A DNA stretch of 64,000 nucleotides from Verrucomicrobiia bacterium (GTDB lineage Bacteria > Verrucomicrobiota > Verrucomicrobiia > JABWAM01). Under the pieces are notes generated by a model that was not told where the DNA came from, searched no databases, and worked only from the letters and a program-made list of their open reading frames with translations. Below are positions 40,565 to 59,141 of this stretch, in pieces. Both the position numbers and the translations under genes were made by a program. The stretch lies in NCBI GenBank assembly GCA_028687435.1, contig JAQUAF010000004.1, positions 66,344 to 130,343 on the forward strand, in the 5' to 3' direction. How positions within the stretch are numbered: position 1 is the stretch's first letter; the number at the start of each line of letters is the position of its first letter.

Positions 40565-43500
40565 ATGAAAAACGATACCCCTTTCAAGGCAAGCCGTTAT
40601 GCGCGGCTCTTGTGGAACGAATGGATGATGCAGCCGGACGATGACTGCTACAATATCGGCTTTGTCTATGAAATCACAGGGAAACTGGATGTGGAGCGTC
40701 TGAAAACCGCCCTGCAATGCTATATCAACCGGAACCCGCAGATCCGTTCCTCTTTCAGTGAAAAACAGGAAACCCTGTATCAAACCTTCCAAAGCCAAAT
40801 CAAGGATCCCATCGTTTGCCAGGATTGCTCGGGCCAAGGACAAGAGGAACTCGACGGTCTGATCCAAAAGCTCTGCGGGCAAAGCTTTGATCTCTCCCAT
40901 GCGCCGCTGTTTAAGTTTTCCATCCTTAAAGCCGATGACCACCGGCACTACTTGGCGTTGCGTTTTCACCACATCATCGTTGACGGGACCTCACTCGAAA
41001 AAATCCCCCTGTCGATTGCCGCATTGTATAACGCCACCGATCCATTGCTCCCCGGAGAAGTCGTCGGCGAACCGCCCCAACTGGGCGCTTATTTGGAATA
41101 TGAAGAGGCGCTTTTTAAGAAGTCATCCCTGCCGGAAGCTCTGGATTATTGGGAACAATTGCTTGGCGGCCGGAGCTTGTATGTCAATTTGTCGAAAAAA
41201 GAAAGCGCCCCCAAGAATCCTGATTTTTCAGTCAAAATCTTCAATTTCGATTTGGACCAGAAACTGACGAATCTGATTTCCAATTTGGCCCGGGAAAATT
41301 CCGCCACGGTTTTCCATGTCATGGCGGCGCTCTGGAGCGTTTTCCTGAAAAAATATTCCGGCCAGGAAAGCATTGCCTTTGTTTATCCTGTCGGAATGCG
41401 CCCCGGAAACATGATGGACATGGACGGTTATGCCGTGAACTCGCTGCCGATGGTCACGGATTATCGCGAAAATACGACATTCGTTTCTTTGGTCGGCCAA
41501 ATCAAGGAACAGCGGAAACTCGCCAAACGCCATCAATTCGCCCCTTTTGACGAGATCGTCAACCGATATAATAAAACGGCGCCTTCCAAATACGGCCAAC
41601 AATACAATAACTATCTGAACGCGGTCATCAGCCAATCCAACGAGTTGCTGGACTCGCCGATGGACTTGAAAGGGGTGCAGGTCAAAGCCATCCCCTCCTC
41701 AACCCTGTTCCATGCGGAAATGGGATTGATCTATCGCAAAGAACCTCAGACCCTTCATTGCCAGATCTGTTACAACCAGGCTTTGTTTGAAGATTTTGTT
41801 TACGCGTCGGCAGAAAAGGATTTTACGCGTTTGGCGGAAAGGTTGCTGGCCGATCCCCATCAAGAGGTTGACGCGGTGTCCCTTCTTGCCGAGGGCGACC
41901 GGCAACAAATCCTTTGCGACTGGAACAAAACAGACGTTCCCTTTTCCAAGGAAAAAACCATTTCCGCGCTTTTTGAAGAGCAGGTGGAACAAACACCGGA
42001 CAACCTTGCCGTGGTCTATGAAGGAAAAAGCCTGAGCTACCGGGCTCTCAATCAACAGGCCAATCAACTGGCCCATGCCATTCGGGGGAAATACCGGGAA
42101 TTCCATGGGAAAGAGATCCAAGGCGATACGCTGATCGGGTTTTATATGGAACGCGGCATGGAAATGATTGCCGGCATCCTGGCGATCCTGAAGGCCGGGG
42201 GCGCCTACGTGCCATTTGATCTCGCCGATCCTGAAGAAAGGTTGAAATTCAAGCTTGACGACAGCAATTGCAAAATGATCGTTGCCAGCGCGGAAACCCT
42301 TGAAAAATTGCAGCCGCTGACCGGCGCAAAAATTCCAACGATCAGCATCGACGCCGAGGCGCGCGAAATAGAAAAAAGACCGGCCTCCAACCCGGCGCCG
42401 GTGAATCATTCCAGAAACCTGGCCTGCCTGATCTATACGTCGGGATCGACCGGCCGCCCCAAAGGCGTGATGACCGAGCACTGCGGCGTGGTGAACTTCA
42501 TCGACTATCACCGGAAGAACTTCGTCCCCCTCAAAAAGCATCATCATGTCCTGCAAAGCATTTCCCTGAGTTTCGACGCCTCATGGACCGAATTGGCCCT
42601 CGGGCTTTTTACCGGCTCAACTCTGCATATCGTCAAGTCGATGGCGGAAATGACCGAAAAGCGGATGCTCCAATTTCTCAAGGACCATGAAATCAATGTT
42701 TTCATCTCGACTCCCGCGATGGTGGAAAACCTGTCCAAAAAAGACAGCGCCAGCCTGGAGATCATCATTTGCGGGGGCGAGGTCTGCGAGAAATCAATCA
42801 TGGATGACTGGAGCGACCGGGTCAAATTTTACAACGCCTACGGCCCGACGGAAGCAACGATCTGCGCCACCTATTCCGCGCATCGCCGGAGCAAATCCAA
42901 CCGGAATATCGGAAAGCCGTTGCAGAACAAAAAAGCTTATATCCTTGATGCCAGGCTTAACCCGGTTCCCAAGGGGCTGTGGGGTGAGTTGTATATCGGG
43001 GGAGAAGGCCTGGCCAGGGGCTATTGGAATCGGCCGGAATTGACCCGGGAACGGTTCATGGATGATCCCTTCGCCCCTGCCGCGGGATCGAAAATGTATA
43101 AAACGGGTGACATGGTCCGCTGGCTGGAAGATGGCAGCATCGAGTTTCAGGAAAGAAACGACGACCAGATCAAGATCAACGGCTTCCGGGTGGAACTGGG
43201 TGAAATTGAAAACAAGCTTGCGCAATGCCCCGCCCTCTCCCGCAATGTCGTGGTCTGCAGGGAACGGGCGGGAAGAAAATATCTGGCCGCCTATTATACA
43301 ACCCGCGACAAAATTGAACCCGACGCCTTGAAAAAGCACCTTGCCGGTTTGCTGCCGAATTACATGGTGCCGGGTTGTTTCCTCGAACTGCCCAGGCTTC
43401 CCCTGACTCCCAACGGCAAAATCGACAAAAAAGCGCTTCCCGATCCCCATTTCGAACCAGCCAAGGAAACCTATGCGCCGCCGGAAAACGCAATCCAACG

Positions 43501-46500
43501 GCAATTGTGTCAAACCATGAAGGAGGTGCTGGGATTGGATAAAATCGGAATAAGGGACGACTTCTTCGCCAACGGCGGGGATTCGATTGCCTGCCTGCGG
43601 CTGAGCGCGAAGTGCCGCGACAAGGGGCACGCCCTGAGCCCCAGGGATATCTTCGAAAAACGCACGGCGGAAAATCTTTCCCGCTTGATCCAGGAGAACA
43701 AGGGAAAAGGGGCGGCTCCGGATGATCAGGAGGACTTTTCGCAAACATGCCGGGATTTTCTTCCCGCCGGGCTTTTGGCGGAAATCCATCGCCGTTATGC
43801 CGTTGAGGAAATCCTTCCCGCAAACAGCCTGCAGCAGGGGTTTTTGTATCACCTATTGAGCCATCCGGGTGACGACGCCTATCACATCCAAATGCTGGCG
43901 GACTATCGGCAAGGGATTGACGTCACGAAATACGAACAGGCCTGGAAATACGCCGTAAAAAAATATCCCCCCATGCGGACTTGCTTCAATTGGAAGGAAG
44001 AAATCGTCCAAATCATCTGCCGGGATATCGATTTCAAGCTCAACTTTTCCGATGTTTCCAACCACGAAAATAAAGAGGCGGCCATTGATGAAATCCGCCA
44101 TGCCGATCGGAAAAAGGGTTTCGATCTCGCCCAACCGGGGCTTTTTAGGATTTATCTTGTCAAACAGGGCGAGAGCCATTACACGCTGTTAAAAAGCGAA
44201 CATCACAGCATCACCGACGGCTGGAGCAATTCCCTGCAGTTGAATTATGTCCATGCGGTTTACAAGCAACTCCTGAAAAATCAGTCTCCCCCAAACGAAC
44301 CCGACGAAGCCTACTGCGCCGCGCAAAAACACCTCTTTGTCAACCAGGATAAAGCGCAGGCTTATTGGAACGACCGGATCAAAAAAGCCGCTCCGGCCCA
44401 TGATATCCGCCCGCTCTTTTCGGCAAACCAAAATCCCGATGCCATGAAGAAAATCAGGGAACCCCGGGAATATTCCCTGCGGATAGACGGCGCCCCCTAT
44501 GATCTCATTAAAAAAGCGGGACTCAAGGCCGGGGCAACCCTGAATGTCCTCATTCAGTTCGCCTGGCACAAACTTCTCTCCCTCTATGGCGGCAACAGCC
44601 CGACCGTGGCGGGAACGGTTGTATCGGGAAGAGCCCTTCCCATCAAAGGCATCGAAAACAGCGTGGGTCTTTATGTCAATACGCTGCCGCTGATCGTTGA
44701 CTGGCGGGAAAAAACCGTGCAGGAGCAATTGAATCAAATTCATTCCGCCATGATGGAGATGGACGAACATAGTTCCATGAACATCGGCCAACTCCATCGG
44801 GGGGGGCATCGGCTTTTTCACAGCCTCTTCGTATTTGAAAACTACCCCCTGCCCGAGGAAGAAACCCCGGGGCCGGAAGCCCTTGAATTTACGCTGAGAA
44901 AAGCAGCCGGCAAACTCGATTTCCCCCTTTGTTTGGCGGTCTTTGAAAAGGATCATTCGCTTCTTCTCCAACTGAACTACGATGGCGCTTGTTTATTCCC
45001 GGAAGATGCCAGAAAGCTGATGTCCCAAATGGAGCTGATCATCAACGAAATCCCGGACAAACTCGGGGTTTCCCACCACGCAATCTCCGCTCTTTCCCCC
45101 CTGGATTACGAAAAAACGATTCATCTCTGGAACAAGACCGCCTTGGACTATGGGAGGGATCAAACGATTGCCGAAGCCTTCGAAGCCCAGGCGATGAAAA
45201 CCCCCGGGCAGACCGCCCTGGTCTTTGGCGGGGAAAAATTGACCTATCGGCAACTCAACCAACAGGCCAACCAAATCGCGGCCGCGCTCAAAAAAGATTA
45301 TCTCCAGAACTTCGGGGAAGCCATCAAACCCGGCGCCCTTGTCGGGCTTTACCTGGATCGCTCCGTCCAGATGATCGCCGCCATTCTCGGCATTCTCAAA
45401 GCCGGCGCCGCCTACGTTCCTTTTGACCGCGCCGATCCCGCCGGGCGGCTGCAATACAAAATCGAGGATTGCGCCTGCAAGATGATGCTGACCTCCTCGG
45501 CATGCGCGGCGGATCTGGCCTTTTTGCCGCCCGGACGTCCGGCACGCTGGGAGATCGACCGGCATACGACGGAAATCGCCGCCCAGCCGGATTCCAATCC
45601 GAACCGCATCAATCGCGCCACGGATCTGGCCTATGTCATCTATACCTCGGGTTCGACCGGCCAACCCAAAGGGGTGATGCTGGAGCACTACGGAGTGATC
45701 AACCTGGCGGCGTCCCACCGCCAAAGTTTCAACATCGGGGAACAATCGACGATTTTGCAATTTGCGCCGGTGAGTTTCGACGCCTCGGTCTCGACGCTGT
45801 TCACCACGCTGCTCAACGGCGGCACGCTTTGCCTTTGCCCGGAAGAGACGAGGAAAGACACGCAAAAATTGGGTGAACTGATCGTCCAGAACCGGGTGAC
45901 CCTGATCGATATTCCAGCCAGGTTGCTGGAGGTTTTCCCCCGGGATCTCGACCTGTCGCATTTGCGTTGCATCATCACGGCCGGGGAGGTCTGCGACCAA
46001 AAGACCATGGACTACTGGAGCGGCAAAGTGAGGTTGATCAACGCCTACGGGCCAACGGAAGGCGCCGTCTGCGCGACCTTTTCGATCCATGCGAAAGGGA
46101 AAAGCAACAAGAACATCGGCAAACCGATTGGAAACAAGAAAGTTTATGTTTTGAACAGCGACCTCACCCCCCTGCCGGTGGGGGCGCCCGGGGAGTTGTA
46201 CCTTGGCGGGGACGGACTGGCGCGGGGTTATCTGAACCGGCCGGAGATCACGCGGGAGCGTTTTATGGCAAATCCCTTTCTAAAGGAAGGCGGACCCACG
46301 CTGCGTGAGGCGAGGATTTACAAGACCGGGGATCTGGTGCGCTGGCTGGACAACGGCGAGCTGGAATTCTTGGGACGAAACGACGACCAGGTGAAAATTC
46401 ACGGCTACCGGATTGAACTCGGGGAAATCGAACAACGGCTGCTGTCGTATCCCGGGATCTCGGGCGGCGCGGCAAAAATTCAGGACTGGAAAGGCGCCCC

Positions 46501-46960
46501 CTGTCTCTGCGCCTACTATTCAGTGTCTAAAAAAGTTTTGCCGGAAGAACTGAAAAAACATCTTTCCGCTGCGTTGCCGGATTACATGATCCCTTCGCAT
46601 TGGATGGAGTTGCCAAGCCTCCCGTTGACCGTTTCGGGAAAAATCGACCGGCACGCACTGCCGGTCCCCGAGTTAAAAACGGTTGATGCCCCATGCATCC
46701 CACCCCGCAACGAACTGGAAGCGCGGCTCTGCGAATTGTGGCGGCAGATTCTGGGGCTGGAACGCCTCGGCATTCACGATGACTTTTTCAATTTGGGCGG
46801 CAATTCGATTGCCGCCATCAAACTGGTCAACAAGATGACCGGCCTTTTGGGCGCGGAGATCTCCATCGCCGAGCTCTACCAAAAACGAACCATCGCAAAT
46901 TTTAATTTTGCCGAACAACCGGCCCAAAATAAAATCGAAGGCGAAGAAATCGAACTATGA
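40565..46960 (+). CDS. Non-ribosomal peptide synthetase, two modules (C(starter)-A-T-C-A-T)
   Basis: 2131 aa. C motifs HHIIVDGTS and HHSITDGWS. A-domain cores LIYTSGSTGRPKGV and VIYTSGSTGQPKGV, plus NGK and YKTGD motifs. T domains FFANGGDSIA and FFNLGGNSIA. The stop overlaps the next NRPS start (ATGA). Confidence 0.92.
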   Translation: MKNDTPFKASRYARLLWNEWMMQPDDDCYNIGFVYEITGKLDVERLKTALQCYINRNPQIRSSFSEKQETLYQTFQSQIKDPIVCQDCSGQGQEELDGLIQKLCGQSFDLSHAPLFKFSILKADDHRHYLALRFHHIIVDGTSLEKIPLSIAALYNATDPLLPGEVVGEPPQLGAYLEYEEALFKKSSLPEALDYWEQLLGGRSLYVNLSKKESAPKNPDFSVKIFNFDLDQKLTNLISNLARENSATVFHVMAALWSVFLKKYSGQESIAFVYPVGMRPGNMMDMDGYAVNSLPMVTDYRENTTFVSLVGQIKEQRKLAKRHQFAPFDEIVNRYNKTAPSKYGQQYNNYLNAVISQSNELLDSPMDLKGVQVKAIPSSTLFHAEMGLIYRKEPQTLHCQICYNQALFEDFVYASAEKDFTRLAERLLADPHQEVDAVSLLAEGDRQQILCDWNKTDVPFSKEKTISALFEEQVEQTPDNLAVVYEGKSLSYRALNQQANQLAHAIRGKYREFHGKEIQGDTLIGFYMERGMEMIAGILAILKAGGAYVPFDLADPEERLKFKLDDSNCKMIVASAETLEKLQPLTGAKIPTISIDAEAREIEKRPASNPAPVNHSRNLACLIYTSGSTGRPKGVMTEHCGVVNFIDYHRKNFVPLKKHHHVLQSISLSFDASWTELALGLFTGSTLHIVKSMAEMTEKRMLQFLKDHEINVFISTPAMVENLSKKDSASLEIIICGGEVCEKSIMDDWSDRVKFYNAYGPTEATICATYSAHRRSKSNRNIGKPLQNKKAYILDARLNPVPKGLWGELYIGGEGLARGYWNRPELTRERFMDDPFAPAAGSKMYKTGDMVRWLEDGSIEFQERNDDQIKINGFRVELGEIENKLAQCPALSRNVVVCRERAGRKYLAAYYTTRDKIEPDALKKHLAGLLPNYMVPGCFLELPRLPLTPNGKIDKKALPDPHFEPAKETYAPPENAIQRQLCQTMKEVLGLDKIGIRDDFFANGGDSIACLRLSAKCRDKGHALSPRDIFEKRTAENLSRLIQENKGKGAAPDDQEDFSQTCRDFLPAGLLAEIHRRYAVEEILPANSLQQGFLYHLLSHPGDDAYHIQMLADYRQGIDVTKYEQAWKYAVKKYPPMRTCFNWKEEIVQIICRDIDFKLNFSDVSNHENKEAAIDEIRHADRKKGFDLAQPGLFRIYLVKQGESHYTLLKSEHHSITDGWSNSLQLNYVHAVYKQLLKNQSPPNEPDEAYCAAQKHLFVNQDKAQAYWNDRIKKAAPAHDIRPLFSANQNPDAMKKIREPREYSLRIDGAPYDLIKKAGLKAGATLNVLIQFAWHKLLSLYGGNSPTVAGTVVSGRALPIKGIENSVGLYVNTLPLIVDWREKTVQEQLNQIHSAMMEMDEHSSMNIGQLHRGGHRLFHSLFVFENYPLPEEETPGPEALEFTLRKAAGKLDFPLCLAVFEKDHSLLLQLNYDGACLFPEDARKLMSQMELIINEIPDKLGVSHHAISALSPLDYEKTIHLWNKTALDYGRDQTIAEAFEAQAMKTPGQTALVFGGEKLTYRQLNQQANQIAAALKKDYLQNFGEAIKPGALVGLYLDRSVQMIAAILGILKAGAAYVPFDRADPAGRLQYKIEDCACKMMLTSSACAADLAFLPPGRPARWEIDRHTTEIAAQPDSNPNRINRATDLAYVIYTSGSTGQPKGVMLEHYGVINLAASHRQSFNIGEQSTILQFAPVSFDASVSTLFTTLLNGGTLCLCPEETRKDTQKLGELIVQNRVTLIDIPARLLEVFPRDLDLSHLRCIITAGEVCDQKTMDYWSGKVRLINAYGPTEGAVCATFSIHAKGKSNKNIGKPIGNKKVYVLNSDLTPLPVGAPGELYLGGDGLARGYLNRPEITRERFMANPFLKEGGPTLREARIYKTGDLVRWLDNGELEFLGRNDDQVKIHGYRIELGEIEQRLLSYPGISGGAAKIQDWKGAPCLCAYYSVSKKVLPEELKKHLSAALPDYMIPSHWMELPSLPLTVSGKIDRHALPVPELKTVDAPCIPPRNELEARLCELWRQILGLERLGIHDDFFNLGGNSIAAIKLVNKMTGLLGAEISIAELYQKRTIANFNFAEQPAQNKIEGEEIEL
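45128..46440. repeat. 1313-bp near-identical direct repeat (copy 1) covering the adenylation domain of NRPS1 module 2
   Basis: Identical to 51646..52958 at a constant offset of 6518 nt with 2 mismatches. The antisense ORF translations in the track are identical between the copies. Confidence 0.9.
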
Positions 46961-49900
46961 ATATCCTTGGACTTTTTCGGGACCTGAAAAAGCGGAACAT
47001 CTCCCTGTGGTGCGAGGCTGGCAAGCTGAAGGCTTTTCTCCCCAAAGGCGGATCCCTTGCCGCCGGGGAAAAGGGTTTTATCGATGAGAACAAACCGGAA
47101 ATTCTCCGGATCTTGCAGGAGAACGGAATCCAGGCAAAGGAGGATTTTCCCGGCCGCGAGATTTACCGGAATGTCCTTGCCAAGGGCAACTGGGGGCTGT
47201 CCTATGCCCAGGAACGGTTATGGTTTCTGGAGCAGTATGAAGGAGGAAGCTCGGCCTACAACGTCCCGCTCCTGCTCGATCTTGGCGCCGGCGTTGATCT
47301 TCCGGCTTTTAAGCAGAGCGTTGAGCGTGTGGCTGCACGTCACGAAGTCCTGCGGACGGTTTTCAGGAAAGACAGCGCCGGCAACGACTATCAATGCATC
47401 CTTCCCGGGACGCCGGCGATCCATGAAGAACGTCTTTTGGAAAAAGATCTCCCCGCCCGGTTGAAACAAAACATCAACTCCGTTTTTGATCTGGTCCATG
47501 AAGGCCCCTTGAAAGTCTGGCTCTTGCGCACCGAGCGCACGGTGTATGCCTTGATCAATCTGCATCATCTCGCCGTTGACGGTTGGTCCATGGGGATCCT
47601 GACCGCCGAACTGGAAAATTTTTACCAGGCCGGCATGGAAAACAGGGAGCCGAAACTGGCGGGACTCGACATTCAATACAAGGATTTTTCCTTGTGGCAA
47701 AAGGATTGTCTCTCGGGCGAAGAACTCGCCCGCAACCTTGCGTTCTGGAAAAAGCGTCTGGAGGGATATGAACCGTTGGATTTTCCGACGGATTTTCCAC
47801 GCCCCTCCCGTGTGGATTACGCCGGTGAATACGTTCCCTTTGAACTCGACGAGAAACTTTCCGTGTCGCTGAAGAAGCTGGCCGCCCAAAAAGGAACGAC
47901 TCTTTACGTCGTTTTGTTGTCCGCTTTTTACCTGCTGCTGCATAAATACACCGCTCAGAGTTCCCTGGTCGTGGGAACGGTGGCCGCGAACCGAAACCAT
48001 AAACAACTCGAAAATCTGATCGGTTTTTTTGTCAACAGCCTTGTCCTGAACATACAGATCGATCGGGAATCAACCTTTGACCGCCTGATCGACCAGGTCA
48101 AAAGCCTCCTGGTGGATGGGCAAACGTTTCAAGAGCTTCCTTTTGAGAAACTCGTTGAGCTTCTGAAATTGGAACACGACCCATCCCGTCACCCGATTTT
48201 CCAGATTATGTTTGGCGGAATGGGTTTTGGTGAAAACAAGCAAAGATTGTTCAGGGAAGTCCCGCTGGACAGCCATTATAAGCCCGCCAAATTCGATTTG
48301 AGCCTCTTTATCGATGAGCGCGATTCTGCGCTAAAGGGAACCTTCAATTATCGGGTGGCGCTTTTTAAGGAGGAAACCATCCGCCGGTTGAAGGATCATT
48401 TTGTCAACATCCTTGGCCAGATCGCCAAAAACAGCGCCGTCCCGATCAAGGAGATCAGCTTTCTTTCCAACCGTGAATACGAAACGCTGATTTACGAGTG
48501 GAACAAAACCGACGCAGCTTATCCGCAGAGCAGGACCATCATCGAACTTTTTGAGGAGCAAGCAAAAGAAAACCCCGATCAGCCAGCCATTCTTTGCCAG
48601 GGGGAATGCTTAACCTATCGGGAACTGAATGAAAAGACGAACCAACTGGCCCATACCATCCGCAAAGTCTTTCATGAATTTAACGGGACGCCCATTGCCG
48701 GCGATACGCTCATTGGAATCTATATCGACCGTTCGGTTGAAATGGCGCTGGCCATTCTCGGCATCTTAAAGGCCGGGGCCGCCTATGTCCCATTTGATTC
48801 GGCGGACCCGCAGGACCGGCTTAAATTCAAAGTCAATGACTGCGGTTGCAAAATGGTGCTGACCACCGCGAACAACCTGGAAGACCTGGTGTTTCTTGCC
48901 GAAACGGACACCATCCCCTTCTCGGTCGACGGGTACATGGATGAAATCCGGAAAGCGCCAACCAGCAACCCGGGCCGGGTCAATGGCCCGGAAAATCTGG
49001 CCTACATCATCTATACCTCGGGTTCCACGGGAAGGCCAAAGGGGGTCATGCTCGAACATCGCAGCGTCATCAATTACATTGAAAATTTCAAAAATGCCAC
49101 CGCCCCCGGAAAAAAAATCGTCGATCTGTCGAGCAGTCTCAGCTTTGACCTTACGGTGACAACCACGCTTGTCCCGCTGGCAACCGGAAGCACGATCGCC
49201 ATCTACCCGGGAAACTTGCAGGACATCGACGGCTACATGAAGCACCTGGCAGCCTGCGGCGTGACCTTTGTCAAAACCGTTCCCAGCCTGTTGTACCTGC
49301 TGCTGCAACGCGAAAAACCGGCCTCCCTTGCCGAAATATTCGTTGGTGGAGAAAAGCTCAAAAGGGAGTTGTTGGCCCATCGCGAAGGACTCACGATTTA
49401 TGACGAGTATGGCCCCACCGAAGCCACCGTGGGGACGACTCTCGCCAATGTTTTTCCGCTCAATCAAAACGGCATTGGCAAACCTTACCATCATTACAAG
49501 GTCTATATTCTGGACGCCGGCTTGAAACCGGTTCCCATCGGCGTCAAAGGCGAGCTTTTCATCGGCGGCGCCTGTCTGGCCAGGGGCTATTTTAACCGGC
49601 CGGAACTCACTCAAGAACGCTTTATTGCCAATCCGTTTGCCACGGCCGGGGAAAAACAAAAGGGATTAAACGCGAGGATCTATAAAACCGGCGATATCGT
49701 TCGCTGGCTGCCGGATGGCAACATCGAGTATCTCGGACGCAATGACGACCAGGTGAAAATCCGCGGTTTCCGGATCGAACTGGGGGAAATTGAGCAAAGG
49801 TTGTCCGAACATCCATCGATCGAACATTGCGCGGTCGTATGCAAAGAAGTGAACGCCAACAAGTATCTGATCGCCTATTATGTCGCTTCCCGGGAGTTGA

Positions 49901-52900
49901 CCTCCGACACTCTGCAAGATGACCTCAGCCGGATCCTTCCGGAGCATATGATCCCGTCCTGTTTTATCGCCCTGCCGGAAATGCCGCTGACCGTGAACGG
50001 GAAAGTCAACCATAAGGCCCTCCCCTCGCCTGATTTCAGGGGCGACGCCAACGACTTCCAACCTCCGCGCAATGATGCCGAGGCCCTCCTGTGCCGGCTG
50101 TGGAAAGAAATTTTGGGAATCGACAAAGTCGGCATCAACGACGATTTTTTCAAACTAGGCGGTCATTCCATCCTGGCCATCAAACTCTGCCATAGGATGA
50201 CCAAGGAACTGCAGCGGGAAATTCCAATTGCCGCGCTGTTTGAGAAAAAAACCATCAAGGGAATCTCCTCCGCCCTCCCGCTGTTCAAGCGTCTGGTTGC
50301 GATCAAGCATTATGCCGAAACCGAAGCCATCCTCTCCTTTGCCCAGGAACGCCTTTACTTTATCGAGGAGTATGAACGGGGCAGCAAGGCTTACAATATT
50401 CCGATCCTGCTGGAGCTCGACCCAAGCGTCGATCTGCGCGCATTGAGGGAATCGCTGCGGAGCATCGTCGATCGGCATGAAGTTTTGAGAACCGTTTTTG
50501 CGAAAAACGAGCAGGGAATCGTTTATCAGAAAGTCAAAACCGGCCCGCTGGAAATAGCGGAGATCAACGTGGCGGAGGCGGATTTCCCTCGGCAGGCAAG
50601 CGAACGCATCAATATCGCCTTTGACCTGCACCTCGAGTATCCAATACGGGCAACGCTGCTTTCCACCGATCGGCGAAGGTGTTTGCTGGTCAATATCCAT
50701 CACATCGCGTTTGACGGTTGGTCGGCGGATATTTTCTTGCGGGAACTGAACGCCTTTTACCGGCATCATCGCGAGGGCGTTCCCCACGGGCTTCCCCCCC
50801 TGGAAATCCAATACAAGGATTTTGCCCTCTGGCAACGGGATTGTCTTTCCGGGGAAAATCTGGAGCGGGAACTGGCTTACTGGAAAAACAATCTGCAAGA
50901 TTGCGAAACGCTGGAGCTTCCCGTTGACAAACCACGCCCCCCCGAAGTCGATTACCACGGCGATTATTTCGCATTCAATCTCGATGAGGATATTTCCCGT
51001 CAAGCGCGGCAATGCGCAAAAAAATATGGGACAACCCCTTACACAGTTTTTTTAAGCGCTTTTTACATCCTGCTTCACAAATACAGCGGCCAGAGCGATA
51101 TCGTCGTCGGCGCCCCCACAGCCAACCGGCATTATGCCCAACTGGAAAACCTCATCGGCTTTTTCGTGAATTCCACGCCCATGCGGTTCCGGCTGGCTCA
51201 GACGCCGGACATTAAAAGCCTGATGGAGAACACCGCGGCATCCCTGGCCGACATGCAGTCCCACCAGGATTTGCCATTCGAAAAACTGGTTGACCTCCTG
51301 GGCGTGCCCAAAGACCCGTCGCGACACCCGTTGATCCAGGTGATGTTCAGCGTGCAGAGCTTTGGATCCCTCGATCAAAAAAATGGGCCGGGCCTTTTCA
51401 AGAATATCGACACCACGGAGTCGTATAAAATCGCCAAATACGATTTAAGCCTCTTCATCGACGATTCCCAGGAAAGGTTTTCCTGCGGCTTTAACTACGC
51501 CACCAGCTTGTTCACGCGGGCCGCCATTGAAAGGATGGCCAGCCATTACAATGCCGTTTTGCGGGCCTTTTTATCGGGAGAAAATCGGCGGATCAAAGAC
51601 ATCAATCTCTTAACCGGTGACGAATTCGAGACGATCATCCGGAATTGGAACAAGACCGCCTTGGACTATGGGAGGGATCAAACGATTGCCGAAGCCTTCG
51701 AAGCCCAGGCGATGAAAACCCCCGGGCAGACCGCCCTGGTCTTTGGCGGGGAAAAATTGACCTATCGGCAACTCAACCAACAGGCCAACCAAATCGCGGC
51801 CGCGCTCAAAAAAGATTATCTCCAGAACTTCGGGGAAGCCATCAAACCCGGCGCCCTTGTCGGGCTTTACCTGGATCGCTCCGTCCAGATGATCGCCGCC
51901 ATTCTCGGCATTCTCAAAGCCGGCGCCGCCTACGTTCCTTTTGACCGCGCCGATCCCGCCGGGCGGCTGCAATACAAAATCGAGGATTGCGCCTGCAAGA
52001 TGATGCTGACCTCCTCGGCATGCGCGGCGGATCTGGCCTTTTTGCCGCCCGGACGTCCGGCACGCTGGGAGATCGACCGGCATACGACGGAAATCGCCGC
52101 CCAGCCGGATTCCAATCCGAACCGCATCAATCGCGCCACGGATCTGGCCTATGTCATCTATACCTCGGGTTCGACCGGCCAACCCAAAGGGGTGATGCTG
52201 GAGCACTACGGAGTGATCAACCTGGCGGCGTCCCACCGCCAAAGTTTCAACATCGGGGAACAATCGACGATTTTGCAATTTGCGCCGGTGAGTTTCGACG
52301 CCTCGGTCTCGACGCTGTTCACCACGCTGCTCAACGGCGGCACGCTTTGCCTTTGCCCGGAAGAGACGAGGAAAGACACGCAAAAATTGGGTGAACTGAT
52401 CGTCCAGAACCGGGTGACCCTGATCGATATTCCAGCCAGGTTGCTGGAGGTTTTCCCCCGGGATCTCGACCTGTCGCATTTGCGTTGCATCATCACGGCC
52501 GGGGAGGTCTGCGACCAAAAGACCATGGACTACTGGAGCGGCAAAGTGAGGTTGATCAACGCCTACGGGCCAACGGAAGGCGCCGTCTGCGCGACCTTTT
52601 CGATCCATGCGAAAGGGAAAAGCAACAAGAACATCGGCAAACCGATTGGAAACAAGAAAGTTTATGTTTTGAACAGCGACCTCACCCCCCTGCCGGTGGG
52701 GGCGCCCGGGGAGTTGTACCTTGGCGGGGACGGACTGGCGCGGGGTTATCTGAACCGGCCGGAGATCACGCGGGAGCGTTTTATGGCAAATCCCTTTCTA
52801 AAGGAAGGCGGACCCACGCCGCGTGAGGCGAGGATTTACAAGACCGGGGATCTGGTGCGCTGGCTGGACAACGGCGAGCTGGAATTCTTGGGACGAAACG

Positions 52901-55900
52901 ACGACCAGGTGAAAATTCACGGCTACCGGATCGAACTCGGGGAAATCGAACAACGGCTCTCGGCCATCGAGGGAATCTCCCTCTGCGCGGTAAAAGTGTT
53001 TGAAAGGGAAAACTCCAAGTGCCTATGCGCCTATTATTCGCGAATCTCAAAAATATCGGAAAACCAAATCAGGAATCAGCTGGCCGCCGTATTGCCCGAT
53101 TACATGACGCCGGCCTATTATGTCGAGCTCGAGTCGTTTCCCCTGAACACTTCCGGCAAGATTGACCGGAAAGCCTTGCCGTCCCCGGATCTCAGCCTCG
53201 AAAGGGCCGCTTATACCGCCCCTGGCGCCCCTCTGGAAAAAACGCTTTGTGAGACTTTCCAGAAGTTGCTTCACGTGGATAAAATCGGGGTGAATGATGA
53301 TTTCTTCAAAAATGGCGGCGATTCGATTTTGAGCATTCAGCTTTGTTCAGCCCTGAAAAAGGCGGGGATTTCCTGCGCCGTCAAGGATCTCTTCAAAAAT
53401 CCAACGGTCAAAAAGCTCGCCAATCATCTTTCCTCCCCCCAAGGGCCGGCTATTCCGATCATCCGCGAAACCGGCGTGTTGGAAGGGGAATTTGAACTGC
53501 TGCCCATCCAAAAATGGTTTTTTGACAAAGTGGAAAGCGGAAGCTTCGGACGCCCCAACCACTGGAACCAAAGCTTTATGTTGAAGGTTCCGCCGCTTGA
53601 TCCGGAGGCGATAAAAAGGGCCATCAGCGCTCTGACCGGCCATCACGATATGCTCCGGGCCACTTTTAAAGGGAGGACCCAGAAATACAACCCGGCGATT
53701 GCCGTTCCTAAATTAAAGCTTCTCGATCGAAGCGGATTGGCGGACGAAAAACTTTTTGCCATCCTCACCGAATGGCAGAGCGGTTTTGACATTGAGAATG
53801 GGCCTCTTTGGCAGATCGGCTACATCACCGGCTATCCCGACGGCGGCGCCAGGTTGTTTTTCGCTTTTCATCATCTGATCATCGATGCGGTCAGTTGGAG
53901 AATCATCAGCGATGATTTCAGAAGAGTTTATGACGGCGAGCCTTTGAATGAAAAGGGAAGCAGTTACCGGCAATGGGTCCATGAAATGGGGCATTACCGG
54001 CAAACACACAGGGAAGAAGCCGCCTATTGGGAAAATGTCCTGGGCTCGCTTCCCGCCCACCCCATCGCCAATGACCAACACAAAAGCATTCAGCGCACAC
54101 CGTCATTTCGGGAAGTCCGCTTTGAAAAGGAATTCACCGCCCAACTGCTTAAAGAAGCCCATGCCGCTTATGCCACCTCCATCAATGACCTGCTGCTGAC
54201 TGCCGCGGCCTATATGCTTAAAGACTGGCTGGGCGGCGGCCTTCAGGGGATCACCTTGGAAGGACACGGACGGGAAAATATCAATCCTGCCATCGACCAC
54301 AGCCATACCGTGGGCTGGTTCACGAATACTTATCCCGTAAAACTGGAGGTCGGCCGGGATATGTCTGCAACGATCATGGGGATAAAAGAAAACCTGACCC
54401 GCATTCCGAACAAGGGAATCGGTTTCGGGGCCTGCTTGTCCGGCAACAAAAAGCAAAGGCTGCCGCCGATAACCTTTAATTATCTCGGTCAACTCGACGG
54501 CGCCGACGACGTCAATACCTGGCCCTTTGCGGCCGAACCAGCGGGACAAAGCACCGCGGCGGAAAATAGCGACACCAGCCTGATTGCCATGAATGGGTTT
54601 GTCGCGGAGGGAGAACTCCGTTTCCAGTTCATGACCAACCTGGGAGAACAGGCAACCGCCCAATGCGCCCAAAACTTTGAGCGGACGCTCAAAACGGTGG
54701 TTGAGCATTGTCTTGCCGCGCGGCGAACCGGCGCCCCGGCCGTCCAACAAACGGCGGAATTCGAGTATGTGCCCTGCCTTTTATTGAACCAGGAAGCCCG
54801 CTCGAATAAATTGATGATCATGGTTCATCCGGATTCCGGTTATGAGGCCTATATGGCTTCGCTGTATCCTGCGCTCTCCAGTGACATCAAGGTCATTCTT
54901 ATCGATAACTACTACAAAAAAGTTTATCTGCAAAACGGCGTCACGTTGGCCAAAAGCGATCTCAACGGCTTCAAGGATTTGGCGGATTATTACATCAAAC
55001 TCCTGTTTGCCAAAGAAAGGGAGCTGTTGGAACAATCCGCCTGTTCACTGCTGGGTTACAGCTTTGGCTGTCCGATCGCATGGGAAATGCACCGCATCCT
55101 CAAGGGCCATGCCATCGCCGTTAACGACCTCTACATGGTCGACCCCCTGCTGCCGTCCTTGCTGAAAACCAAACGACGGCTGAATTGCTTCTCATGGTAC
55201 GAGGAATATCTTCCGGCGCCGACGGAAACGCCCGTGATCCATTTCCATTGCACGGTTCCCGATCCGTCCATTCCGGGTTATGCCGAGCATTTCACGGACA
55301 AAGAAAATTATTCCCTGCGATCCATCGCCCAAAACCTGCGGGAATATGAAATAAAGTGCCACCATACCGGCATCCTCAACAATCCCGACTTTATAAAAAC
55401 TTTCCAAACGACGGCGAACAGCGGTTGGGTCATTAAGGATGAAAGCGCAAGACAGACCACAGGCAGAGGCGGCGACATCCAACGGATTGAACTCGCGGTA
55501 AGGGAAATCCTGTCAAAGATTATGAGGCCGGAAAAAGAATTGGCCGGCGCAGAAAACCTTTTCCACCAGGGGTGCGCTTCCATCCAGACGTTGTCGATCC
55601 TGGCCATGGTCAATGATCGATTCCGGCTGTCCATGTCTCTGCCTGACATCATCCGAAACTTTACCATCGACGGCCTGGCCGCCTTGATCGCCAAGAACGA
55701 GGTTGTCCGAAAAAGCGATCCCGTCTGGGAACCTGTGGTGTTCAAAAGCCGGAATCCGGATGCCGCCAATCTGTATTTCCTCCCCGGTTTTATCGGATCG
55801 GTGGGTTCCTACAGTCGAATCTGCTCCGGCTTGTCCAGGCTTTTCAATGTCATCTTCATGGAACCCAAGGGAATGTATGGCGATATGACGCCTTTTGCCT

Positions 55901-56550
55901 CCCCGGCCGAAGCGCTCGCCGTTTATGCAAGCGAGATCACCCAAAGAAATAAGATCGATTCTCCCGTTTTCCTGGCCGGCCACTCGGTGGGTTCGGTTCA
56001 TTCATTGGATCTGGCGATCAAACTGGAGGAAATGGGATACCGGAAGGTGGGCCTGATCAATATCGACGGTTACTTGCACAAGATGGAAAGTCTCATGCAA
56101 TCGTTCAGAACCCTCAATTTGGATGCGGCCCTGGTGGCGGCGATAAAAAGATTCTTCAAGGAAAACCCGGCAAAGGAATCCGCCCTGGCGCCGCAGGATC
56201 CGGTGCGGGAAATCGCCTCGATTTTGTTCCCATCGCCGGAGGTGAGCCGGGATTACGCCTTAAGGGTTGCCCTGGGATACCGCAATATCTGGCATCAGCA
56301 AATTGACGACATCATCAAATACAACGAGCCCTCCCGGAAATTCGCCGGCAAGCCCCTGGCGTTCATCACTCTGGATTCGGATAAAAAAATCCAGGAGATG
56401 ATCCTGCGCTCATGCCATGAGCGCTACGCCGGCAAGTTTCAACTCCATTATATTGAGGGAGACCACTTGAGTTGCATTATCAAGCAGGAACTCATCGAGA
56501 AAGTTGTCAATCTTGTCTCCCAATGGAAAGAGTCCTCAAGCGTTTTTTAG
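46957..56550 (+). CDS. Non-ribosomal peptide synthetase, two modules plus termination region (dock-C-A-T-C-A-T-E-TE-T-TE)
   Basis: 3197 aa. N-terminal TubC-like docking domain (LGLFRDLKKRNISLWCEAGKLKAFLPKGG). C motifs HHLAVDGWS and HHIAFDGWS. A cores IIYTSGSTGRPKGV and VIYTSGSTGQPKGV. T domains FFKLGGHSIL and FFKNGGDSIL. Epimerisation domain motifs E1-E7 (PIQKWFF; HHLIIDAVSWRI; EGHGRE; HTVGWFTNTYP; FNYLGQ). Thioesterase GYSFG, a degenerate carrier-like segment (LFHQGCASIQ) and a second alpha/beta-hydrolase TE (GHSVG). Confidence 0.92.
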   Translation: MNILGLFRDLKKRNISLWCEAGKLKAFLPKGGSLAAGEKGFIDENKPEILRILQENGIQAKEDFPGREIYRNVLAKGNWGLSYAQERLWFLEQYEGGSSAYNVPLLLDLGAGVDLPAFKQSVERVAARHEVLRTVFRKDSAGNDYQCILPGTPAIHEERLLEKDLPARLKQNINSVFDLVHEGPLKVWLLRTERTVYALINLHHLAVDGWSMGILTAELENFYQAGMENREPKLAGLDIQYKDFSLWQKDCLSGEELARNLAFWKKRLEGYEPLDFPTDFPRPSRVDYAGEYVPFELDEKLSVSLKKLAAQKGTTLYVVLLSAFYLLLHKYTAQSSLVVGTVAANRNHKQLENLIGFFVNSLVLNIQIDRESTFDRLIDQVKSLLVDGQTFQELPFEKLVELLKLEHDPSRHPIFQIMFGGMGFGENKQRLFREVPLDSHYKPAKFDLSLFIDERDSALKGTFNYRVALFKEETIRRLKDHFVNILGQIAKNSAVPIKEISFLSNREYETLIYEWNKTDAAYPQSRTIIELFEEQAKENPDQPAILCQGECLTYRELNEKTNQLAHTIRKVFHEFNGTPIAGDTLIGIYIDRSVEMALAILGILKAGAAYVPFDSADPQDRLKFKVNDCGCKMVLTTANNLEDLVFLAETDTIPFSVDGYMDEIRKAPTSNPGRVNGPENLAYIIYTSGSTGRPKGVMLEHRSVINYIENFKNATAPGKKIVDLSSSLSFDLTVTTTLVPLATGSTIAIYPGNLQDIDGYMKHLAACGVTFVKTVPSLLYLLLQREKPASLAEIFVGGEKLKRELLAHREGLTIYDEYGPTEATVGTTLANVFPLNQNGIGKPYHHYKVYILDAGLKPVPIGVKGELFIGGACLARGYFNRPELTQERFIANPFATAGEKQKGLNARIYKTGDIVRWLPDGNIEYLGRNDDQVKIRGFRIELGEIEQRLSEHPSIEHCAVVCKEVNANKYLIAYYVASRELTSDTLQDDLSRILPEHMIPSCFIALPEMPLTVNGKVNHKALPSPDFRGDANDFQPPRNDAEALLCRLWKEILGIDKVGINDDFFKLGGHSILAIKLCHRMTKELQREIPIAALFEKKTIKGISSALPLFKRLVAIKHYAETEAILSFAQERLYFIEEYERGSKAYNIPILLELDPSVDLRALRESLRSIVDRHEVLRTVFAKNEQGIVYQKVKTGPLEIAEINVAEADFPRQASERINIAFDLHLEYPIRATLLSTDRRRCLLVNIHHIAFDGWSADIFLRELNAFYRHHREGVPHGLPPLEIQYKDFALWQRDCLSGENLERELAYWKNNLQDCETLELPVDKPRPPEVDYHGDYFAFNLDEDISRQARQCAKKYGTTPYTVFLSAFYILLHKYSGQSDIVVGAPTANRHYAQLENLIGFFVNSTPMRFRLAQTPDIKSLMENTAASLADMQSHQDLPFEKLVDLLGVPKDPSRHPLIQVMFSVQSFGSLDQKNGPGLFKNIDTTESYKIAKYDLSLFIDDSQERFSCGFNYATSLFTRAAIERMASHYNAVLRAFLSGENRRIKDINLLTGDEFETIIRNWNKTALDYGRDQTIAEAFEAQAMKTPGQTALVFGGEKLTYRQLNQQANQIAAALKKDYLQNFGEAIKPGALVGLYLDRSVQMIAAILGILKAGAAYVPFDRADPAGRLQYKIEDCACKMMLTSSACAADLAFLPPGRPARWEIDRHTTEIAAQPDSNPNRINRATDLAYVIYTSGSTGQPKGVMLEHYGVINLAASHRQSFNIGEQSTILQFAPVSFDASVSTLFTTLLNGGTLCLCPEETRKDTQKLGELIVQNRVTLIDIPARLLEVFPRDLDLSHLRCIITAGEVCDQKTMDYWSGKVRLINAYGPTEGAVCATFSIHAKGKSNKNIGKPIGNKKVYVLNSDLTPLPVGAPGELYLGGDGLARGYLNRPEITRERFMANPFLKEGGPTPREARIYKTGDLVRWLDNGELEFLGRNDDQVKIHGYRIELGEIEQRLSAIEGISLCAVKVFERENSKCLCAYYSRISKISENQIRNQLAAVLPDYMTPAYYVELESFPLNTSGKIDRKALPSPDLSLERAAYTAPGAPLEKTLCETFQKLLHVDKIGVNDDFFKNGGDSILSIQLCSALKKAGISCAVKDLFKNPTVKKLANHLSSPQGPAIPIIRETGVLEGEFELLPIQKWFFDKVESGSFGRPNHWNQSFMLKVPPLDPEAIKRAISALTGHHDMLRATFKGRTQKYNPAIAVPKLKLLDRSGLADEKLFAILTEWQSGFDIENGPLWQIGYITGYPDGGARLFFAFHHLIIDAVSWRIISDDFRRVYDGEPLNEKGSSYRQWVHEMGHYRQTHREEAAYWENVLGSLPAHPIANDQHKSIQRTPSFREVRFEKEFTAQLLKEAHAAYATSINDLLLTAAAYMLKDWLGGGLQGITLEGHGRENINPAIDHSHTVGWFTNTYPVKLEVGRDMSATIMGIKENLTRIPNKGIGFGACLSGNKKQRLPPITFNYLGQLDGADDVNTWPFAAEPAGQSTAAENSDTSLIAMNGFVAEGELRFQFMTNLGEQATAQCAQNFERTLKTVVEHCLAARRTGAPAVQQTAEFEYVPCLLLNQEARSNKLMIMVHPDSGYEAYMASLYPALSSDIKVILIDNYYKKVYLQNGVTLAKSDLNGFKDLADYYIKLLFAKERELLEQSACSLLGYSFGCPIAWEMHRILKGHAIAVNDLYMVDPLLPSLLKTKRRLNCFSWYEEYLPAPTETPVIHFHCTVPDPSIPGYAEHFTDKENYSLRSIAQNLREYEIKCHHTGILNNPDFIKTFQTTANSGWVIKDESARQTTGRGGDIQRIELAVREILSKIMRPEKELAGAENLFHQGCASIQTLSILAMVNDRFRLSMSLPDIIRNFTIDGLAALIAKNEVVRKSDPVWEPVVFKSRNPDAANLYFLPGFIGSVGSYSRICSGLSRLFNVIFMEPKGMYGDMTPFASPAEALAVYASEITQRNKIDSPVFLAGHSVGSVHSLDLAIKLEEMGYRKVGLINIDGYLHKMESLMQSFRTLNLDAALVAAIKRFFKENPAKESALAPQDPVREIASILFPSPEVSRDYALRVALGYRNIWHQQIDDIIKYNEPSRKFAGKPLAFITLDSDKKIQEMILRSCHERYAGKFQLHYIEGDHLSCIIKQELIEKVVNLVSQWKESSSVF
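51646..52958. repeat. 1313-bp near-identical direct repeat (copy 2) covering the adenylation domain of NRPS2 module 2
   Basis: See copy 1 (45128..46440). Protein-level difference is a single residue (GGPTLREA vs GGPTPREA). Confidence 0.9.
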
Positions 56551-56714: not shown

Positions 56715-57023
56715 ATGTTTAACTATCATTTTCAAGAAGGCCCGGAAAAAACGCTTGTCATTGTCATGGCAGGCGAACTGGATACCCTTGCGGCACAACC
56801 GATCCAAAAAGAGATTGAGCTTTATAAGGGAAAAAACTACGAGAAAGTCTTGTTCGAAATGTCCAATCTGACCTACATGGCCAGTTCCGGGCTGCGGGTT
56901 ATTTTTTATGCCCAAAAGAATTTGGGTGAAAATGTAAAAATTGAAATCAAAGGGGCCAAGGAACTGGTGGCTAAAATACTGCAAATCAGCGGCATGTCGA
57001 AATATGTGACGACCGTTCCGTAG
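56715..57023 (+). CDS. STAS-domain protein (anti-sigma-factor antagonist, SpoIIAA-like)
   Basis: 102 aa. VIVMAGELDTLAAQPIQKEI...LTYMASSGLRVI is a typical STAS fold sequence with a phosphorylatable Ser region. Confidence 0.65.
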   Translation: MFNYHFQEGPEKTLVIVMAGELDTLAAQPIQKEIELYKGKNYEKVLFEMSNLTYMASSGLRVIFYAQKNLGENVKIEIKGAKELVAKILQISGMSKYVTTVP

Positions 57024-57131: not shown

Positions 57132-58601
57132 TTATGGTTCCGGCTTGTCCGGGTTGGGGATAGACGCCAAATTTTTCATCGCCGATCGGATCACGGCATA
57201 GCCGGATAAAATGGTTAACCCGGCAACCAGAAAGATCAAACCCCGGCTGGCGGCCATCAGTTGGCCGAGAATCAATGCGCTCGCAAACCACATGAGGGAG
57301 TAGATCTGTCCCAACCCGCCCATCACAACCCCCTGTTCGCCCGGTTTGGCAATATTGGAGTAAAGCGTGGTAAGTCCCAATTGGACAAACGGCAGGGCGA
57401 GAAAAAACAACAGAGCCACAGTCCAGAGTTCAAAGGGCAGAAGCGAGCCTCTTCTTAAATCGGAGACAAACAGGAAGAGGAACAGCAGGCCTTGGGCCAG
57501 AAGGCTGAACAAAATCAACTTGCGGTAATCGAAGTGTTTCAGGGCGCCGGGCTGAAGAAAAAAAACGCTTACCCCCAGGGACAGGGCCACAAAAATAAAA
57601 AACACCCCGATGTCAGACGGGGAATATCCGAAGACATGGGCCAGATAAAGGGAAATGGATTGGAGAAAAAGCCCGAAGCCGAAATAAAAAAAAGAATAGC
57701 CCAGGTTCAACTTTTTCAGCGCGGTTGACCGCAGCAAATAGGTGATGGACGCAAAAATGTTCCGCCATGGCGAAGCCGTTTGATCATTCAAGACACAGGG
57801 CGCAGTCTCGGCAAAAACAAAAAACAGCATGACCCCATTCACCAGCGACAAAAACGCGGCCAGAAAAAAGGGAAGAGCCAGGGGAAAAGGAAACGGTATC
57901 AAATGAATCCCGGAGGAAATGGCCGGCCCCAGGATAAACCCGGCAATATTGGCGATCACGGGCCATTTGAAATTGCTGAGCTTGCTCCGCGTGTCCGCGC
58001 TGATATCGGAAATAACCGCATTGGCAATGACCAGGGTGCCGCAACAAAAACCGCTGACAGCCCGGGCCGACAAAAAAAGCAAATAACTGCCGATGACGAT
58101 GCTCCATGCTCCCAGGAAATAGCCGGCGACAATGCCGGCCAAACCGGCCAAAATCAATTTTCGCCGTCCGTAAAAGTCCGACAGCCCGCCAAGAATCGGC
58201 ATGCCGAAAAAACTCAAAAGAGGGAAGGCTGCAAAGGCCATCCCGTAAAGAATATCCCGGGACAAGAAAATCTCATCGGCTTGGATAAGCCCTTGGACGG
58301 GGTCAAGAAACAGCTTGGGCATGAGGGGATAAATGATAGCCACCCCCAGCGCATCGATAAAAATCAGCGAATAAAGCGCAAACAGCCTTTTGTTCAAAAT
58401 GCCCCTAGCCTTCGCAGAGATAAAAGTGTTTTTCCCACTGTTTAAAATGTTTCTTTTGAAACAGGCTTCCAGACACAAACCAGCGCCTCCAGCAAACCAA
58501 CGACAAGCAACACCAGGAATGTTTTTTTCATGGAAGGGACGCCCATCAGAGTTTTTCGCCGCTTTGTTTCCCTTCATAGCGCCATCCAGGGCGGAATTCA
58601 A
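57132..58601 (-). CDS. MFS transporter (DHA/TetA-like drug:H+ antiporter family), probable exporter for the NRPS product
   Basis: 12-14 predicted TM helices. Motif-A-like GGLSDFYGRRKLILAG. The start is uncertain: the ORF maximum is 58601, and internal ATGs are possible. Confidence 0.75.
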   Translation of the reverse strand: MNSALDGAMKGNKAAKNSDGRPFHEKNIPGVACRWFAGGAGLCLEACFKRNILNSGKNTFISAKARGILNKRLFALYSLIFIDALGVAIIYPLMPKLFLDPVQGLIQADEIFLSRDILYGMAFAAFPLLSFFGMPILGGLSDFYGRRKLILAGLAGIVAGYFLGAWSIVIGSYLLFLSARAVSGFCCGTLVIANAVISDISADTRSKLSNFKWPVIANIAGFILGPAISSGIHLIPFPFPLALPFFLAAFLSLVNGVMLFFVFAETAPCVLNDQTASPWRNIFASITYLLRSTALKKLNLGYSFFYFGFGLFLQSISLYLAHVFGYSPSDIGVFFIFVALSLGVSVFFLQPGALKHFDYRKLILFSLLAQGLLFLFLFVSDLRRGSLLPFELWTVALLFFLALPFVQLGLTTLYSNIAKPGEQGVVMGGLGQIYSLMWFASALILGQLMAASRGLIFLVAGLTILSGYAVIRSAMKNLASIPNPDKPEP

Positions 58602-58635
58602 TCATGAACCGCCGGCAGCGCATTCCCAGGTACCT

Positions 58636-58989: not shown

Positions 58990-59141
58990 AAGCGACGATT
59001 TATCGGACTCAAAACGCGATTGCAGACAAGCTCAATTTGCCCCCCCCTGCGCCCGCTCATTGCCCGGCTTGCGCGGAATTGTATTGGCCTCCCATATCAG
59101 TTATATTTTCCTGATGTTCAGAAAACTCAAATCCGCGGCAT

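Follow-up and report, generated by a model that had tools for sequence, protein, structure and literature searches.

The window, as the whole 64,000-nucleotide stretch of Verrucomicrobiia DNA analysed here is called, encodes a nonribosomal peptide synthetase (NRPS) that ends in two thioesterase (TE) domains with a carrier (T) domain between them. At the C-terminus of the second synthetase gene, the last canonical carrier (T4) is followed by an epimerisation (E) domain, a first thioesterase (TE1), a carrier designated T*, and a second thioesterase (TE2). The layout concerns the way an NRPS terminates and does not amount to a new class of enzyme; it may well operate through a hand-off of the chain that has so far not been described for NRPSs. 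We tentatively read it, at somewhat less than even confidence, as a functional double-termination unit in which TE1 would be an in-line transfer catalyst and TE2 would perform the final release. TE domains are the textbook end-points of nonribosomal and polyketide assembly lines. The TE-carrier-TE arrangement described below should be noted for that reason, as it is conserved across six divergent loci of uncultured, mostly anaerobic-type lineages with its catalytic residues intact.

Domain composition of the termination region

The synthetase consists of two genes and four modules. The stop of gene 1 and the start of gene 2 overlap by 4 nt, and gene 2 is a single unbroken open reading frame (ORF). 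A weak TubC_N-like docking region lies at the N-terminus of the gene 2 product, ahead of its first condensation (C) domain. This product is identical to NCBI entry MDD2706957.1, from a Verrucomicrobiae metagenome-assembled genome (MAG), which is annotated as 'amino acid adenylation domain-containing protein'. The genes and the terminal domains are listed below with positions in the window (A, adenylation domain; aa, amino acids).

40565..46960, + strand: NRPS gene 1, 2131 aa, C-A-T-C-A-T, modules 1-2 (ORF list, Pfam, and phmmer domain map)
46957..56550, + strand: NRPS gene 2, 3197 aa, C-A-T-C-A-T-E-TE1-T*-TE2 (Pfam and phmmer domain map)
53212..53436, + strand: T4, aa 2086-2160, canonical carrier with FFKNGGDSILSI
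53467..54741, + strand: E domain, aa 2171-2595; active-site motif HHLIIDAVSW intact, motifs E1-E7 present
54757..55431, + strand: TE1, aa 2601-2825, alpha/beta-hydrolase thioesterase with a very short lid
55432..55470, + strand: TE1-T* linker, unconserved (16% pairwise identity)
55471..55692, + strand: T*, aa 2839-2912, carrier without its own A domain, four predicted helices
55735..56535, + strand: TE2, aa 2927-3193, thioesterase with a large four-helix lid

The first-pass annotation, made from the letters of the sequence, had read the order E, TE, carrier-like domain, TE in this region. The order was borne out: the domains pass the Pfam gathering cut-offs, and all the motifs quoted in the annotation lie at their places. 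As an excised piece, the E domain matches PF00668 (Condensation) over its full length with 210 bits (cut-off, 30.6). PIQKWFF starts at aa 2183 (nt 53503), HHLIIDAVSWRI at aa 2305, EGHGRE at aa 2435, and FNYLGQ at aa 2507, and DLLLTA, TVGWFTNTYPV, and PNKGIGFG were also found. The domain thus combines the condensation-superfamily match, the HHxxxD motif, and motifs E1-E7 of an epimerisation domain. The motif of T4 is of the GGDSI type, which is usual ahead of E domains.

A hidden Markov model (HMM) search with PF00550 and PF00975, which the annotation had proposed as a check, placed T*, TE1, and TE2 (each excised) above the cut-offs. The TE1 match to PF00975 (33.1 bits; cut-off, 26.4; E 8.7e-8) covers only the N-terminal half of the 226-position profile, from 4 to 105. 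The TE2 match to the same family is full-length (46.7 bits; cut-off, 26.4; E 5.9e-12). T* matches PF00550 with 25.4 bits (cut-off, 20.8; E 1.7e-5) over profile positions 3-67 of 67. All of these scores lie far above what chance would give. NCBIfam gave no meaningful family for TE1, T*, or TE2.

Both thioesterases carry catalytic triads. In TE1, the GYSFG motif is located at aa 2700 (nt 55054), and the triad is formed by Ser2702 (nt 55060-55062), Asp2729 (55141-55143), and His2803 (55363-55365). In TE2, GHSVGS is located at aa 3008 (nt 55978), and the triad is Ser3010 (nt 55984-55986), Asp3037 (56065-56067), and His3170 (56464-56466); a second TE without a complete triad would have spoken against the annotation, and it is complete. 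The Asp residue follows the Ser residue by 27 residues in each domain, the spacing also found in the surfactin TE. The TE2 triad is conserved in the family rows of the alignment and in nearly all aligned terminal TEs.

The region was modelled with AlphaFold as a 602-aa segment from a 32-row alignment (pLDDT, predicted local distance difference test score, 85.3); a first model from a 3-sequence alignment (pLDDT 55) was set aside. In the predicted fold of both TEs, judged relative to the predicted strands, the Ser residue follows a strand at the nucleophile elbow, the Asp residue comes after the next strand, and the His residue after the last strand. The lid of TE1 comprises about 30 residues between strands in the AlphaFold2 (AF2) secondary structure. 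The TE2 region has high pLDDT. Model residues 234-242, inside and beside the TE1-T* linker, have pLDDT below 50.

T* is predicted as a four-helix carrier-protein arrangement, the outcome that had been preset as the test of the segment between the TEs. Its helices lie at model residues 244-261, 280-294, 300-305, and 309-317. The putative phosphopantetheine site is Ser2875 (nt 55579-55581), the Ser residue of GCAS in the stretch LFHQGCASIQTLSILAMV that begins at aa 2868 (nt 55558). It corresponds to Ser280 of the model, which is the first residue at the N-terminus of helix 2, in a block with pLDDT of 75-93. The core motifs of T* align without gaps both with the synthetase's own four canonical T domains and with those from other NRPSs, and the T*-TE2 part of the model superposes on solved didomains of a peptidyl carrier protein (PCP) and a TE.

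The core motif of T* should be noted. T* departs from the NRPS PCP core motif GG[H/D]S, having GCAS in the window and G-[C/I]-[A/T/S]-S in the family. The annotation had pointed to GCAS in place of GGxS, correctly; the motif is a family-conserved variant rather than decay. The pattern G-x-x-S is also that of acyl carrier proteins (ACPs; LGxDS), so GCAS does not exclude modification of T*. The extended carrier motif in the family is G-[C/I]-[A/T/S]-S-[I/L/M]-[Q/R], with the Ser residue kept in all six loci, and helix 2 is strongly conserved as S-[ILM]-[QR]-x-L-S. Canonical PCP-TE didomains (EntF, AB3403, SulM, SrfA-C) differ from T*-TE2: their carriers have GG[H/D/N/S/T]S where the T* family has G-[C/I]-x-S and has lost the Trp residue of helix 1, and no C-A stands in front of T*.

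Conservation and origins of the E-TE1-T*-TE2 terminus

The terminus is rare. Two relatives came out of a word-indexed search of 5.8 billion proteins, and a repeat with a six-sequence profile gave the same two. When 1.84 billion cluster representatives were searched exhaustively with HMMER, the whole TE1-T*-TE2 profile matched only P0001, P0003, and P0004, which are 50%-identity clusters, and the fragment P0005. The three full-length matches score 739-1213 bits and the following ones about 150 bits. Full-text literature searches with strings for the TE-T-TE layout and its name variants gave no match. The annotation had called a carrier inserted between two TEs atypical, and three clusters and a fragment among all these representatives, together with the empty literature strings, agree with it.

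A genome scan added L003 (a Victivallales MAG) and L004 (a small contig binned as Desulfovibrionales). Altogether, six independent loci were compared: the window, L005 (P0004), L006 (P0003), L002 (P0001), L003, and L004 taken together with L001. They are about 50% identical to each other, with GC contents of 34% to 55% where measured. The order E-TE1-T*-TE2 is found in all six wherever the sequence is uncut, and its presence in five further loci excludes a misassembly or frameshift artefact in the window. An apparent frame break that would split the genes in L004 is a run of masked N, not a gene boundary. Candidates for stand-alone T-TE proteins were also rejected: P0002 starts at base 20 of its contig, and P0007, P0010, and P0011 begin with C-terminal tails of A domains (LPxYM, NGKxD), that is, they are truncated gene calls.

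The pairwise identities by domain are as follows.

A4: 62%
T4: 56%
E domain: 49%
TE1: 55%
TE1-T* linker: 16%
T*: 37%
TE2: about 52%

TE1 and TE2 are as conserved within the family as E and T4. The triad Ser and Asp residues of TE1 are kept in six of six loci, and the His residue in the five where it can be read (it is N-masked in L004). The annotation had allowed that the inserted carrier might be a relic. This is disfavoured by the Ser residue, which is kept in 6/6 loci, and by the identity of T*, 37% against 16% in the adjacent linker. L001 and L004, which share 98.7% nucleotide identity and are the only close pair, are separated by 8 synonymous and 4 non-synonymous changes in T*-TE2, which is weak evidence of purifying selection on this part. 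Because the Ser residue is kept, helix 2 is conserved, and the substitutions show this pattern, T* and TE2 do not appear to be decaying relics, although T* has evolved faster than T4.

The two TEs come from different clades, each of them related to TEs that are the sole terminal TE of their synthetases. Elsewhere, TE1-type domains are the very last domain of an NRPS, after T-E in P0016, P0054, P0085, and P0123, which thus have exactly a T-E-TE terminus, and after T in P0058. The TE1 triad is conserved in four of these five terminal relatives; P0123 has Ser in place of Asp. These sequences place TE1 in a clade of TEs that release the chain downstream of an E domain, in termini of the ACV-synthetase type. 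ACV synthetase itself resembles the synthetase of the window in its domain order, T-E-TE, with an E domain and then a TE that must accept a D-configured chain. The T-E-TE enzymes stop after the TE, whereas in the family T*-TE2 follows and TE1 differs in two places. A 7-residue insert, VYLxDGV, lies at window positions 54900-54960 (aa ~2653-2666), where it is predicted as a beta-hairpin with low pLDDT, and a loop aligned with PPGGGGSE.Y of the terminal relatives reads HPDSGYEAY. Neither the insert nor this loop is present in the aligned TE1-type domains that terminate other NRPSs. The insert and the changed loop fit an altered partner or function of TE1, and both may have adapted it to the carrier that follows.

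T*-TE2 is closest to ordinary terminal A-T-TE units (P0006, P0008, P0018, and others). These have GG[N/S/T]S carriers and share with T*-TE2 the W-x-P linker and the long four-helix lid, and by this sequence relationship T*-TE2 descends from such a unit. The simplest history suggested by these relationships is that a complete T-E-TE1 terminus was fused to a T-TE2 terminus that had lost its C-A.

The ancestry of TE1 also suggests another explanation, that TE1 is the true and sole release enzyme, as in ACV-synthetase-type termini, and that T*-TE2 is accessory, with TE2 as a built-in thioesterase that would edit or regenerate by clearing mis-acylated carriers, like the second TE of lysobactin synthetase LybB, and with T* as just a spacer or else a decoy that TE2 also keeps clear. 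TE1-type domains end the last gene in the relatives, and no separate T-TE gene follows the E-TE1-ending NRPSs P0054 and P0085. T* is also the least conserved domain and has no loading domain, and the type II TEs RifR, BorB, YbtT, and RedJ are among the structural matches of the model, with scores close to those of type I TEs. Moreover, the second of the tandem TEs of lysobactin behaves like a type II proofreading TE (PMC10510592). Contrarily, a spacer would not be expected to keep its Ser residue in six of six loci, a conserved recognition helix 2, and the canonical PCP-TE arrangement, and loss of T* or TE2 is seen in no lineage. The annotation had also offered a type-II-like proofreading role for TE2. 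Such a role is not favoured, since the nearest sequence relatives of TE2 are integrated terminal TEs with a cognate T domain, not stand-alone type II enzymes. In every locus not cut by a contig end, TE2 is fused in the synthetase ORF and is not a stand-alone type II TE. Release by TE1 alone therefore appears unlikely to us, though it deserves serious weight.

The comparison with tandem termini is instructive. The synthetases of lysobactin (LybB) and teixobactin (Txo2), and also those of Pseudomonas cyclic lipopeptides, carry two PF00975 TEs in tandem at the C-terminus of the last module, each with a catalytic serine (PMC10510592). In those termini the TEs are directly adjacent, whereas here a 74-residue carrier and linkers lie between them and an E domain precedes TE1.

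Proposed chain transfer and competing explanations

In the double-termination reading, the E domain would equilibrate the C-terminal residue of the tetrapeptidyl chain on T4, and TE1 would take the D-configured chain from T4 onto Ser2702. Instead of releasing the chain, TE1 would hand it on to T*, which would be in the holo form at Ser2875. In the variant that we prefer, TE1 would deliver the chain straight to the pantetheine thiol of T*, and this T4 to TE1 to T* relay would select the D-epimer, a gating task otherwise done by a DCL condensation domain. In the alternative variant, the delivery would be made onto a nucleophile already tethered to T* by one of the synthetase's own A domains, and TE1 would substitute for a C domain. 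The final release from T*, by cyclisation or hydrolysis, would fall to TE2 with its large lid. The domain order E-TE1-T*-TE2 is colinear with this proposed flow of the chain.

Analogies exist for the single steps. The alpha/beta hydrolases CmaE and SyrC transfer aminoacyl groups from carrier to carrier via a covalent enzyme intermediate, as the relay would ask of TE1, although they are separate proteins of another alpha/beta-hydrolase subfamily, use a Cys nucleophile, and handle single amino acids. In acyltransferase domains, too, an acyl group bound to a nucleophile of the enzyme is moved to the thiol of a carrier. For the alternative variant, iterative TEs such as Vlm2 offer an analogy, as they ligate a TE-bound chain to a carrier-bound nucleophile, and A-less modules loaded by a neighbouring A domain are known, which offers an analogy for T*.

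Several points weigh against a hand-off by TE1. We know of no PF00975 thioesterase domain that passes an acyl chain from its Ser residue to a downstream pantetheine thiol, nor, to our knowledge, does any TE condense a chain onto a downstream carrier. The relatives of TE1 are ordinary releasing enzymes, so that TE1, too, may do no more than release the peptide. With 37% identity against 56% for T4, T* is clearly the less conserved carrier, and it has neither the second Gly residue of GGxS nor the helix-1 Trp residue, both of which may reflect relaxed constraint. Furthermore, only four sequences underlie the model in its TE1 part, since MAFFT aligned the terminal relatives under TE2. We regard as rather doubtful the stronger claim that TE1 would be the first thioesterase-family domain to act as an intramolecular peptidyl transferase, by which the D-epimer would be re-thioesterified onto an A-less carrier or ligated to a residue on it before release by TE2.

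What is at stake in this distinction should be noted. If TE1 hands the chain on, the terminus would contain a new elementary step, either from a Ser ester back to a carrier thioester or a TE-catalysed elongation. Nonribosomal logic would then include a new kind of module (TE-T), and NRPS engineers would have a compact D-specific gate as an alternative to the C domain. If TE1 simply releases the peptide, the terminus is a curiosity of domain fusion. The TE1-T*-TE2 tridomain is small (about 600 aa) and amenable to direct in vitro study.

The cargo of T* bears on these readings. In the rest of the 64-kb window and in the flanks of the five related loci, no A domain, acyl ligase, acyltransferase, MbtH-like protein, or phosphopantetheinyl transferase (PPTase) was found. 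With no loader beside any of the six loci, the cargo of T* must come from the synthetase itself or from housekeeping enzymes. The suggestion of the annotation that T* may be loaded in trans is thus unsupported as far as a dedicated enzyme is concerned, there being no A domain, ligase, or acyltransferase beside them.

The closest solved structures of TE2 suggest a different role for this domain. Its best solved-structure match by sequence is the oocydin branching thioesterase 7r0x (E 3.7e-6; about 6e-4 for DEBS TE), and this structure recurs near the top of the structural matches to the model. T* could then bear a separate small acyl or aminoacyl unit from outside the cluster, provided by a primary-metabolism acyltransferase, a PPTase with acyl-CoA, or a distant A domain, and TE2 would be an oocydin-like branching acyltransferase acting on a side chain of the peptide that TE1 releases. 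Non-terminal TEs with non-release roles are known in polyketide synthase (PKS) systems (10.1101/2022.11.22.517467). Such TEs have been described as highly unusual and mostly without clear function. In icumazole IcuJ, TE-B of malleicyprol/burkholderic acid, FR901464 Fr9C, alpiniamide AlpA2, and the oocydin branching TE, carrier-containing parts follow the TE within one protein, as they do here. Those systems are PKS or hybrid systems with full modules after the TE, whereas the window has a pure NRPS with a bare carrier and a second TE. Against a branching TE2 stand the small margin of 7r0x over other TEs, the plain terminal A-T-TE units that are the closest sequence relatives of T*-TE2, and the absence of a conserved loading enzyme near the six loci. 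We consider a branching TE2 improbable.

The top Foldseek matches of the model are Vlm2 TE structures, and a further possibility is iterative oligomerisation, in which T* would be a waiting position that parks one tetrapeptide and TE2 would ligate and cyclise two copies. The structural resemblance between the TE domains and that of Vlm2, which oligomerises, and the extra A-less carrier, as in waiting-position models, are consistent with it, and the twin carriers of fungal cyclodepsipeptide synthetases provide a precedent for a waiting position. Yet the Vlm2 similarity is generic to TE folds, TE1 would still be required to load T*, and gene 1 starts with a C domain, which suggests an N-acylated chain without a free amine for head-to-tail ligation. 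Oligomerisation is, in our view, the most improbable of the readings considered here. The hand-off from TE1 to T* with final release by TE2 remains the one that we prefer.

Gene neighbourhood and other features of the window

Two genes flank the synthetase downstream.

56715..57023, + strand: STAS-domain gene, 102 aa, directly downstream of the NRPS (Pfam)
57132..58601, - strand: major facilitator superfamily (MFS) transporter, 489 aa, convergent with the NRPS and STAS genes

An orthologous STAS gene, of anti-sigma-antagonist-like type, is syntenic right after the NRPS in six of six loci. That of the window is 41-49% identical to the STAS genes of L001-L003 (41-68% among the four compared). 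This synteny suggests that the gene is probably part of a conserved gene cluster. In five loci (L001, L002, L003, L005, and L006) the STAS gene is followed by an RsbW-like kinase, and in L002, L003, L005, and L006 by a HAMP-SpoIIE phosphatase after the kinase, L001 having the kinase only. The stretches concerned are the following.

L003, 12323-14843: downstream STAS/kinase/phosphatase stretch
L005, 19024-21536: the same
L006, 5205-7667: the same
L002, 2391-4573: the same
L001, 1241-1981: the same, with the kinase only

An NRPS cluster thus harbours a conserved partner-switching module. A tblastn search of the window with the L003 proteins found neither an RsbW-like kinase nor a SpoIIE phosphatase, and the STAS gene is the only member present. 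Among the other loci, a transporter gene follows where the contig extends far enough: in L005 and L006 it is again an MFS gene, convergent and in the corresponding position, and in L003 it encodes a MATE pump. The conserved convergent transporter suggests that the MFS protein is the likely exporter of the cluster product. Further downstream of the transporter, the ORFs 58390-59796 (+ strand, 468 aa) and 59760-60764 (- strand, 334 aa) have no Pfam match.

The N-terminus of gene 1 (40565-41900) opens with a condensation domain with HHIIVDGTS at aa 135 and without an upstream module. This first C domain may be of the starter type, in which case the peptide would be N-acylated. The second one in gene 1 (HHSITDGWS) likewise diverges from both C domains of gene 2. 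The A-domain stretches 45128-46440 (module 2, gene 1) and 51646-52958 (module 4, gene 2), each 1313 bp, are 99.85% identical, with 2 mismatches and no gaps. The near-identity points to gene conversion or to a duplication within the synthetase in the recent past, and both modules should activate the same amino acid. This amino acid is probably aromatic, the specificity codes having been eyeballed from motifs and not relied on.

Elsewhere in the window, a MutL-like gene (PF13941), a methylaspartate mutase E chain gene, and a methylaspartate ammonia-lyase gene lie in a row at 6025-10466 (+ strand). The methylaspartate route of glutamate fermentation suggests an anaerobic lifestyle of the host. 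At 28342-28983 and 34597-35265 (+ strand), two genes with a prepilin-type N-terminal methylation motif and DUF1559 have glycoside hydrolase and metallophosphatase genes around them and no relation to the NRPS. Such prepilin-type and DUF1559 genes are typical of Planctomycetota, Verrucomicrobiota, and Lentisphaerota, in keeping with the Verrucomicrobiae MAG that contains the synthetase.

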